Positions 23,308 to 25,898 of a DNA stretch of 64,000 nt are shown here, piece by piece; the stretch's first letter is position 1, and every line of letters starts with the position of its first letter. Source of the stretch: Alphaproteobacteria bacterium (lineage in GTDB: Bacteria; Pseudomonadota; Alphaproteobacteria; Bin95). The stretch lies in NCBI GenBank assembly GCA_964291285.2, contig OZ219785.1, positions 224,001 to 288,000 on the forward strand, read 5' to 3'. Below the pieces are notes generated by a model. The model saw only the letters and a list, made by a program, of their open reading frames with translations, was not told the DNA's origin and did no database searches. A program made the position numbers and the translations under genes.

Positions 23308-24262
23308 CCCTCGGCATAGGCCTCATGATGTTCCCGGCCCTGATGGTGGCCATCTTCATGGGTTTCCCCGTGGCGTGGTCGCTGATGGGAATCGCCCTCA
23401 TCTTCGGCTACTACCGCTTCGGCGACGCGCTCGTCTATCAGCTCGTGGCGAAGGTGGACGACGTCGCCTCCTACTATGTGCTGGCCGCCGTGCCGCTGTT
23501 CGTCTTCATGGGCGTGATGCTGGAGCGCTCCGGCATCGCCGAGCGCCTGTTCGAGGCCATTCACCTTTGGACCCGCCGGCTGCCGGGCGGTCTGGCGGTC
23601 GGCACCGTGCTGCTGTGCGTGGTTTTCGCTGCGGCGAGCGGCGTTGTGGGGGCGACCGAGTCGGTGGTCGGTCTGCTCGCCATTCCGATCATGCTGCGCT
23701 ACGCGTACGACAAGGGCCTCATCTCCGGCACCATCTGCGCGGGCGGTTCGCTCGGCACCATCATCCCGCCGTCGGTGGTGGTGGTCATCCTCGGTCCGGT
23801 GGCCGACGTCTCGGTGGGCGACCTGTTCGTCGGCATGCTGTTCCCGGGCCTGCTGCTCGCGCTGTCCTACGTGCTCTACATCCTGGTGCGATGCATGCTG
23901 AAGCCCGGGGACGGACCGCGCCTGCCGCCGAGTGACGACGATCCGCCCATGGCCCAGCGTATCTACATCACCGCGACGGCCATGATGCCGCCGCTGGTGC
24001 TCATCTTCGCCGTGCTCGGCACGATCATGCTCGGCTGGGCAACGCCTACCGAGGCGGCGGCGATGGGCGCCATCGGCACCGTCATCCTGACCGTCGTGTA
24101 CGGCCGGTTCGACGTCGCCACCCTGCACGCGGCGTTCATGAAGACGCTCCAGGTGACGGCCATGATCCTGACGATTCTGCTCGGCGGGACCATGTTCGCC
24201 GGCGTGTTCGTCGCGCTCGGCGGGATCAGCGCCGTGGAAGGGTTGCTGGCAGCGGCGAACCT

Positions 24263-24436
24263 TGTATCTCTCCGGATCGTTGTTGCAGCTATAGTCGCAA
24301 CAGCGGGAGCGGACGGGAGACCGCTAGCACCCAGGTTATGAAGACCGCGGGAGAGCATGGTTCCCCGTCCGCTGTTCCTTTGAACCCGAACAGTCGCTTG
24401 GTCCGCAGTGTGAGACCGCATTTGCAAGGACGGGAC
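24263..24436 (+). ncRNA. Putative bridge RNA of IS110 copy 1
   Basis: 5' hairpin 24281-24302; stem 24308-24317/24364-24373 enclosing gcgggagag (reverse complement of target CTctcccgc); acagtcgcttg at 24390-24400 equals the circle junction. Confidence 0.8.
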
Positions 24437-25369
24437 ATGGAACGGATATTCGTTGGCATCGACGTGGCGAAGGATCGTCTGGACGTGCATCTGCGCCCGT
24501 CCGGGGAGGCCTTTGCCGTCGCGCGCGACGGCAAAGGCCTGGAAGAGTTGTCGGCGCGCCTGGGCGGGCTGGAGGTTGCCCTCGTGGTGCTGGAGGCGAC
24601 GGGCGGCTTCGAGGTCACGGTCGCGGCGGCGCTCTGCGCGGCGGGCCTGCCATTGGCGGTGGTCAACCCGCGCCAGATCCGGGACTTCGCCCGCGCCACC
24701 GGCCGGCTCGCCAAGACCGACGCCCTCGATGCGGCGGCGATCGCACAGTTCGCCGAGGCGGTCCATCCCGAGCCCCGTCCGGTGCCTGACGAGCAGGCCC
24801 GCGCGCTCGCCGAGCTGGTCGCCCGGCGGCGCCAGATCGTCGCGATGATGACCGCGGAGAGAAACCGCAGGAGGCGCCTCACAAGCCGTCGCACGATCCG
24901 CAGCGTCGACCGCGTGCTCGCCACCCTGCAACGCGAACTCTCCGACCTCGAAACCGAGCTCGGCGATGCGATCCGCAAATCCCCCGCATGGCGCCAGGCC
25001 GAGGACCTCCTCAAAAGCGTTCCCGGGGTCGGTGACGCCACCGCACGAACCCTGATCGCCGATCTCCCCGAACTCGGAACCCTCAGCCGAAGGCGCATCG
25101 CCGCGCTCGTCGGCGTCGCGCCCTTCAACCGCGACAGCGGAACCATGCGCGGAAAGAGAACCATATGGGGAGGACGCGCCAACGTCCGCGCAACCCTCTA
25201 CATGGCTGCCCTCACCGCCTCCAGGCATAACCCAACCCTCAAACGCTTCTATCGCCACCTGATCGCGGAGGGAAAAACCAAAAAGGCTGCCCTCACCGCC
25301 GTCACACGAAAGCTCCTCACAATCCTCAACGCTATCCTCAGAGACCGAACCCCGTGGAAAACAGCTTGA
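24437..25369 (+). CDS. IS110 family DEDD recombinase/transposase
   Basis: GIDVAK, LEATGG, KTDALDA (DEDD); [24 protein letters not shown]. Confidence 0.95.
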
Positions 25370-25898
25370 CCGACAACACAGTCGCTCTCCCCGACCGCGA
25401 CCATCTTCATCCTGCTGTTCATCGCCTTCATCGCCGGCTTCGTGCTCGATCTGATTTCCATCGTGCTGATCATCATCCCGGTAGCGGTCGCGGTGCTGCG
25501 CAAGATGGGCGTCGACGACGTCTGGTTCTGCATCATGTTCCTGATCGTCATCCAGACCAGCTACCTGACGCCGCCGATGGCGCCTGCCATCTTCTATCTG
25601 CGCGGCATCAGCCCGCCGGAGATCAAGCTGGCGGACATGTACCGCGGCGTGATCCCGTTCATCCTTCTGGAGCTGGTGGTGCTGGCGCTGGTGTACTGGT
25701 TCCCGGGGCTGGCGCTGTGGCTCCCGAGCGTGGTGTTCAAGACATTCTAGAGCGGTCTCCGACCGGTATGAAACGCGTTCCACACCAACGTCCCGCTTTG
25801 GAAGTTTCCATGCAGCGGGTCGCGCCGGCTCTCCCGGAGGCAGTTTGGTTCGAGGCCTCCAGGGCGCGCCGCGCCCCCGCCACAGAGTTGCGTTCCCG

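Follow-up and report, generated by a model that had tools for sequence, protein, structure and literature searches.

The 64,000-nucleotide stretch analysed here, hereafter the window (positions 224,001 to 288,000 of contig OZ219785.1, assembly GCA_964291285.2, from an Alphaproteobacteria bacterium), holds two copies of a 1122 bp insertion sequence, and the question raised by this locus is whether the element selects its target sites through a bridge RNA encoded in its own left end. Such a system, made of a bridge recombinase and a bridge RNA, is described for IS621 of Escherichia coli (Durrant 2024, PMC11208160; Hiraizumi 2024, PMC11208158), and a first-pass annotation of the window had proposed that the element is IS621-like, with readable guides and two natural target sites. 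The evidence gathered below from the recombinase, the host genome, orthologous loci and public runs leads us to conclude that this is very probably an IS110-group insertion sequence moving by bridge-RNA-guided recombination, as IS621 does. The mechanism is of a known kind, described in 2024; the element is a well-supported new example, not a new mechanism, and the orthologue may already be in the lists of bridge-recombinase papers.

The element and its recombinase

The CT dinucleotides proposed to bound both insertions are present in the sequence. The anatomy, in window coordinates, is the following.

24263-25384, + strand: IS110-family element copy 1, 1122 bp, CT at each border
24261..24262, + strand: left CT core (target-site duplication), from the sequence; CT borders every copy
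25385..25386, + strand: right CT core, from the sequence
36077-37198, + strand: identical copy 2, 36075..37200 with its cores, CT at 36075-76 and 37199-200
24437..25369, + strand: recombinase gene, 310 aa, with D9, E53, D95, D98 and S234 and with domain, profile and structure matches
25378..25384, + strand: left donor sequence ACAGTCG, the element end, from the sequence

The frame at 24437-25369 is the sole long one retained by orthologues, and its product contains both IS110 domains, namely an N-terminal DEDD RuvC-like domain (PF01548, DEDD_Tnp_IS110, residues 6-147, 3.4e-24) and a C-terminal Tnp domain (PF02371, Transposase_20, residues 190-273, 4.2e-20), and scores 222.9 bits against the NCBIfam profile NF033542, 'IS110 family RNA-guided transposase' (cut-off 140). 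Among solved structures, the IS621 transposase (8wt6, E 1.5e-38) and ISCro4 (9t56, 2e-38) align to it over residues 4-307. Residues D9, E53, D95, D98 and S234-G235 align to D11, E60, D102, D105 and S241-G242 of IS621, among which D11, E60, D102, D105 and S241 are given as catalytic (Hiraizumi 2024, PMC11208158): the D-E-D-D plus serine set is complete. The protein is the lone, unnamed member of its own 90% protein-identity cluster, and metagenomes contain more than 100 clusters at 74-97% identity to it. The nearest named elements among plasmid annotations are ISMex17 and ISMno7, which are IS110-like and come from alphaproteobacterial hosts, at only ~65-66% DNA identity to the element.

Target sites in the host genome

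The host genome (five contigs, 6.1 Mb) carries 13 copies of the element, identical at every aligned base (100%), nine of which are intact while in four the left end is interrupted by another insertion sequence. The site logo called for by the first-pass annotation was built from the 12 copies having both flanks, the thirteenth having a right flank only, which begins CTCTCCCG. On the left, position -4 is G in 8 and A in 3 sites, -3 is C in 11/12, -2 is A in 11/12 and -1 is C in 12/12; on the right, the CT core and the CTCC that follows it are invariant (12/12 each), and the next base is C (8) or T (4), each of which pairs with a guide G. Base +8 is G at 9/12 sites. The sites share the consensus R-C-A-C/CT/C-T-C-C-Y, which agrees with the proposed guides and fits the predicted target; all 12 are related to acCTctccc, the pattern first read from the two sites in the window, so that the proposal withstands the check on further copies by which the first-pass annotation would have let it fall. 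A tally of the site lists gives, for RCACCTCTCCY genome-wide, 9 occupied versus 8 unoccupied sites.

Structure of the left end

The 174 nt between the left border and the recombinase start codon, the length originally given to the left end, comprise the features listed below, in which MFE stands for minimum free energy, LTG and RTG for left and right target guide, and the counts refer to the orthologue set.

24263..24436, + strand: left end, the bridge-RNA gene, 174 nt (fold z -2.86, covariation, covariance model R1 133.9 bits)
24277..24306, + strand: 5' stem-loop, MFE fold only
24308..24373, + strand: target-binding loop, outer stem 24308-17/24364-73 plus 24319-22/24359-63, compensatory changes in 11/14 pairs
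24327..24332, + strand: LTG, GCACC(C), own-flank match in 25-36 of 38 guide pairs per position, and site logo
24334..24346, + strand: target-loop inner hairpin, GG/CC pairs invariant, which is consistent and not informative
24349..24355, + strand: RTG, GGGAGAG, 33-38 of 38 matches per position and 12/12 sites of the host genome
24356, + strand: putative handshake base C, C/G in 46/46 distinct left ends, role by analogy to IS621
24384..24435, + strand: donor-binding loop, outer stem 24384-87/24432-35, inner stem 24399-24402/24415-18, covariation
24390..24398, + strand: left donor guide ACAGUCGCU, right end plus core, 9/9 identical in this element, variable positions covary with the right end
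24420..24428, + strand: right donor guide, split (AU 24420-21, UU unpaired, G 24424 in a wobble with T, CAAG 24425-28), layout as in IS621
24429, + strand: putative handshake base G, complementary to target base -1 (C), pairing in 59/60 insertions

The orthologue set comprises 80 loci whose protein identity is 61-93%, most of them in assemblies of Alphaproteobacteria, and the structure alignment was made from 31 of its 46 distinct left ends. The left end folds better than its shuffles (the z score above), and under a hand-written structure, with which RNAalifold agrees, 93.2% of the cells in the alignment are paired, versus 81.7% in shuffled alignments and 35-50% when the partners are slid. 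Changes on both sides are seen in 15/29 pairs, and 0/500 shuffles reach any of these measures. Most of the signal is held by the outer stem of the first loop, whose perfect pairing at 24308-24317/24364-24373 had been pointed out from the window alone; the inner hairpin of that loop says little, since its pairs are invariant or changed on one side only. Covariation supports both loop-bearing stems, and with them the proposed target-loop/donor-loop layout of an IS110 bridge RNA, while the 5' stem-loop is supported by the energy fold only.

Covariation of the target guides with the flanks

In the bridge RNA as described for IS621, the 3' side of each guide pair is complementary to the top strand and the core is included in both guides (Durrant 2024, PMC11208160). 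We have compared guides and flanks in 82 records (the 80 loci plus the two window copies), of which 18 were dropped for want of a callable left end, right end or sufficient flank; from the 64 with left end, right end and flanks, L061, L076 and L081 were removed, their left-end start being mis-called, which leaves 61 insertions, among which 38 guide pairs are distinct. Counted over the seven positions outside the core, the identity to the element's own site averages 4.26 for the LTG and 5.13 for the RTG, versus 2.60 and 2.81 for the sites of other elements. The summed guide-flank score is 357 against a permuted mean of 209.8 (standard deviation, sd, 10.5; maximum 251) and is reached in 0/10000 permutations, a figure that overstates independence because the orthologues are related. 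Many guide changes are plainly separate events: Reyranella elements have CCUGAG, GCUGAG and CCCUGAG, each with matching flanks. Also, the two guides re-assort, the RTG GGGAGAG being paired with at least four different LTGs.

Position by position, the LTG (element positions 65-70) matches its own flank in 25, 33, 36, 35, 34 and 29 of the 38 pairs, and the RTG (87-93) in 37, 33, 38, 36, 37, 38 and 38. The gcacc at 24327-31 was thus rightly singled out as left target guide, its positions covarying with the flank. The right guide had been drawn as the nine bases gcgggagag (24347-55), an exact reverse complement of CTctcccgc; this holds at copy 2, while copy 1 matches 7/9, and only the 7 nt at 24349-24355 covary. 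The first two bases, 24347-48 (element positions 85-86), match in 7/38 pairs each and keep a conserved G[C/U] whatever the target, hence in this clade they do not belong to the guide. By itself the 9-mer GCGGGAGAG is no rarity (the window has 5, versus 2.1 expected); its weight comes from its position and covariation and not from the match itself.

The pairing of the LTG is not perfect at the core, where C24332 stands opposite core T. The base facing core T is likewise C in the left donor guide of 13/46 orthologues, and a mismatch at this place seems to be tolerated. A link between the left target and left donor guides in this respect was considered and rejected: the cross-tabulation (in which the window's own row is mis-registered) gives T/T 27, T/C 12 and others 7 of 46, with no exclusive pattern.

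Donor loop, handshake bases and circle junction

For the donor side 46 distinct left ends were counted, the second window copy and L061, L076 and L081 having been removed. The string acagtcgcttg (24390-24400) consists of the right end, CT and tg, occurs in the window only in the two left ends, and is expected 0 times in 100 shuffles. The first-pass annotation had read all 11 nt as a donor match, and they do equal the circle junction; the last two, however, are the start of the donor-loop inner stem (24399-24402/24415-18), and in orthologues this 'tg' does not track the donor. The left donor guide itself is identical to right end plus CT in 31/46 left ends and matches at 8/9 positions in the other 15. 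Where the right end varies the guide follows it, at guide position 130 in 45/46 (A/A 36, G/G 9, one mismatch) and at position 132 in 46/46 (T/T 41, C/C 5).

The pairing of tgcaag (24423-28) with cttgta, including one G.T wobble, was found as proposed, and can be refined to a right donor guide that is split into AU, two unpaired U, the G.T wobble and CAAG. The corresponding part of IS621 is described as A157-U158, then two U that are flipped out, G161, whose pair with dT12 is non-canonical, and finally C162-G165. At donor position 12 one orthologue has C, so that the pair is a true G-C, and in two it is A-T.

One further base follows each 3' guide. In 46/46 distinct left ends C24356 stands opposite the G that closes the right end, and G24429 faces target base -1 and pairs in 59/60 insertions, the single orthologue with A having a T in its target; this fits the IS621 'handshake' rule, by analogy with which both bases are named. 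The right donor guide and its handshake base overlap AAGGA, six bases before the start codon, which suggests a possible link between RNA folding and translation.

Two further features would come together in a circular form of the element:

24265..24270, + strand: TATCTC, -10-like half of a split promoter and part of the right donor sequence; from the sequence, function predicted
25366..25371, + strand: TTGACC, -35-like half of a split promoter, containing the stop codon; from the sequence, function predicted

These hexamers are indeed placed such that a circle would set them 17 nt apart, as had been noted, and TTGACC-17-TATCTC fits the junction promoter described for IS621, a predicted function. 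CTTGA(C/T) and the spacing are kept in 42/42 distinct junctions and TGTATC is nearly invariant across them; both halves are also constrained otherwise, one by the stop codon and the other by the donor sequence. A consensus scan of the linear element gave no sigma-70-like site.

Taken in order, the element would excise as a circle and join TTGACC of the right end to TATCTC of the left end, creating a promoter. Transcription of the left end would then yield the bridge RNA, ~174 nt long, in which two internal loops accompany the 5' stem-loop. The first loop would read the target GCAC-CT-CTCC(C/T), GCACC recognizing the bottom strand and GGGAGAG the top strand, and the second the element's own junction ACAGTCG-CT-TGTAT, upon which the 310-aa recombinase, through its RuvC-like DEDD site and Ser234, would exchange strands at the CT core. 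Transcription of the left end, circle formation and catalysis are steps that we infer from homology to IS621 and from covariation.

Alternative explanations

A number of observations weigh against this interpretation. Two of the 12 sites depart from the left-flank consensus RCAC (GCGC and GAAC), window copy 1 being one of them; the LTG mismatches core T; TATCTC matches only 3/6 of the -10 consensus bases; six of the 12 sites lie inside one ~200-bp intergenic repeat family; and the orthologues are related, as stated with the permutation test. No transcript was seen in the public runs, which are all contigs, so that the start, end and strand of an RNA are unreadable in them; the single RNA run shares 0.07 of words. 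The circle junction was found neither in the contigs of four runs nor in the assembly, which also has no tandem copy; since contigs drop rare forms, this negative in contigs is not evidence of absence.

The last result touches on mobility, for which the insertion site of copy 1 is informative. The following gene parts flank it:

23343..24260, + strand: interrupted DctM permease gene, 5' part, PF06808 profile 5-303
25385..25750, + strand: interrupted DctM gene, 3' part, PF06808 profile 312-413, in frame in the empty form

Three public runs (X1, X3 and X4) have contigs with the exact joint of 24260 to 25385 expected from the empty site that had been reconstructed for this copy. The joint skips 1124 bp (1122 + 2), with ends CT..CG and two letters ambiguous, and the CT core, present at both junctions when the site is filled, is single when it is empty. 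Across this joint the two parts of the DctM gene are in frame. The bridging contig of X1 shows zero differences from the window; X3 and X4 have few flank differences and are for this reason taken as related strains without the insertion. The per-contig depths of X1 are uneven (15.1 for the empty form versus 166.8 for the flank) and were not used as a frequency, which depth in contigs does not represent.

A site found both filled and empty, in X1 with flanks identical to those of the window, is difficult to reconcile with an element that is of the bridge type by descent and now immobile in this host, its copies being either recent fossils or spread only via duplication of flanking DNA. The missing circle junction, the 4/13 copies with other insertion sequences inside the bridge-RNA gene and the mismatch of the LTG to core T would all suit such an element, but the complete identity (100%) of 13 copies whose frame is open and whose catalytic residues are intact would not, and the flanks differ between copies, which for this reason are separate insertions. 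We thus regard immobility as improbable.

A second alternative concerns how the site is chosen. The repeat family that hosts half of the sites is GC-rich, has more than 100 BLAST hits (e.g. host contig C3:68528-68768) and no Rfam family match, and also hosts 3/5 of the unoccupied sites matching the stricter target pattern; as six sites share it, the logo represents fewer than 12 independent events. Also, the left flanks fold somewhat better (-18.1 kcal/mol) than random genomic 45-mers (-13.2, sd 4.7), and for ISPpu10 of Pseudomonas putida a preprint reports all insertions in one repeat, with a 5' stem-loop required as an extra determinant in the target (bioRxiv 10.64898/2026.03.19.712850). It could be argued from this that the protein, or the DNA structure of the host repeat, picks the site, the left end being a leader or regulator and its complementarity to the flanks a by-product. 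Copy 1, however, sits in coding sequence outside the repeats; guides and flanks change together over 38 guide pairs while protein and donor loop are conserved; and left and right guides re-assort, GGGAGAG occurring with four LTGs. The flank hairpin was in fact rejected as a second determinant, since occupied and unoccupied matching sites fold equally (-18.1 versus -17.9 kcal/mol, a comparison of 12 versus 8 sites with low power). We therefore consider choice by protein or DNA structure very unlikely. An Rfam scan of the five unoccupied target loci returned chance microRNA and long non-coding RNA matches only, all far below cut-offs.

That a GC-rich leader shows these complementarities by mere chance, for which the abundance of the 9-mer in the window could be invoked, is extremely unlikely, given a donor 11-mer with 0 expected occurrences, 0/10000 permutations for covariation and 0/500 shuffles for structure.

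What speaks for the IS621-like interpretation is the concurrence of both domains and all five catalytic residues in the protein, matching target sites throughout the genome and guides that covary with them.

Interrupted copies and related sequences in the host

The four interruptions fall at element positions 45-75 (31 bp), in the target-binding loop, and leave the recombinase gene whole. In host genome contigs the interrupted copies are:

C3:1142108-1143558
C2:1145259-1147405
C2, upstream of 1295741
C3:1703455-1706995

The interrupters belong to three transposase families and sit at three positions: one copy holds an IS256-type element with a 9-bp duplication, two hold a DDE_Tnp_1 element at the same GCTAGC, and one a Transposase_29 element with a nested IS1595 and a 5-bp duplication. 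Three positions within 31 of 1122 bp would hardly be expected by chance (a rough estimate gives 0.002), but such elements abound in this genome. We find it doubtful that the bridge-RNA gene is a preferred landing pad for unrelated insertion sequences. Should the clustering not be due to chance, the guide could be the object of competition between mobile elements or of silencing favoured by the host. Intact copies might still supply RNA that moves the interrupted ones in trans.

Insertion sequences are numerous in the host genome, the 1979-bp DDE_Tnp_1 element giving 81 BLAST hits and the IS256-type element having ~20 full copies. A 137-bp tail of the former also occurs solo, and an end of it lies ~105 bp upstream of window copy 2 (about 35930-35968). 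A diverged bridge-RNA-like relic on host contig C1 (about 7855-7991; L030 1436-1572, minus strand) scores 42.7 bits against model R1 and is 83% identical to element positions 44-115, and four other IS110-type gene fragments are present in the host genome.

Comparison with known systems

The element resembles IS621, as the latter is described in the two reports cited, in the domain order, the DEDD plus serine set and the CT core, in an RNA encoded by the left end, where the target loop and then the donor loop follow the 5' stem-loop, in the split right donor guide with a G.T wobble at donor position 12, in the single handshake base after each 3' guide and in the predicted promoter split across the junction. 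It differs in that the protein is distant (E 1.5e-38) and has 310 aa versus 328 residues in the deposited chain, and that the target is another one. The effective guides are ~6 nt on the left (core included) and 7 nt on the right, whereas in the IS621 structure 9 and 4 are paired; at core T the left guide has a mismatch, and the left half of the donor ends in CG, where IS621 has A6-T7. Unlike IS621, the element is known here from sequence alone.

ISCro4 and IS622 belong to the same family, ISCro4 (PDB 9t56, E 2e-38) being about as similar to the recombinase as IS621 is; they are reportedly engineered bridge recombinases characterised in human cells (bioRxiv 10.1101/2025.05.14.653916), whereas the element is a natural, uncharacterised orthologue. 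IS1111-group elements have the same transposase family and are also RNA-guided (seekRNA), with the guide RNA downstream of the transposase gene; in the present element, by contrast, it lies upstream. Like ISPpu10, as the preprint reports it, the element inserts in copies of a conserved intergenic sequence, but only for 6/12 sites, and a flank hairpin does not separate used from unused ones.

Some orthologues deviate from the common pattern. Those of Reyranella (L049, L053-L057, L060-L075 and L083) lie immediately behind hairpins whose sequence varies (GAGACG, stem, loop, stem, CTCCT), their left target being the 3' arm of a REP-like palindrome, which recalls the target stem-loop reported for ISPpu10. 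In L059 foreign sequence replaces the left end up to the start codon, and the frames of L036 and L050 are shortened to 243 and 273 codons.

An Rfam scan of the element placed the Xanthomonas small RNA family sX15 (RF02234) antisense on the left end (24295-24409, minus strand, 28.1 bits, cut-off 55), the only other match being a chance microRNA. At the type locus of sX15, on the Xanthomonas plasmid pXCV183, the bridge-RNA covariance model fits the opposite strand with 39.6 bits (E 2.8e-7):

L120 1097-1226, that is NC_007507 about 116396-116525, minus strand: bridge-RNA model match at the sX15 locus, covariance model

This match is followed by the start of a truncated IS110-type gene. On the same strand lies asX7, a Northern-verified 70-nt RNA at 116528-116459, minus strand (Schmidtke 2011, PMC3300014), which covers the target-loop half of the modelled bridge RNA. 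Since the model fits the strand opposite sX15 and asX7 covers this half, asX7 seems to belong to a bridge RNA, with sX15 as its antisense; this Rfam family of Xanthomonas small RNAs would then appear to represent the opposite strand of a gene for a bridge RNA. In a literature search for 'asX7' the only relevant paper was the 2011 study.

Implications

For the host, the insertion explains a disrupted TRAP-transporter permease gene. For the family, the locus offers a natural bridge recombinase of compact size (310 aa) whose natural record is unusually complete, comprising twelve two-sided target sites in one genome and a precise, public empty site. The 38 related guide pairs, set against a nearly constant donor loop, are in effect a natural reprogramming experiment, and from them the rules of the clade can be read: ~6 plus 7 guide bases, a handshake base on each side, a mismatch at core T that seems to be tolerated and a conserved G.T wobble.

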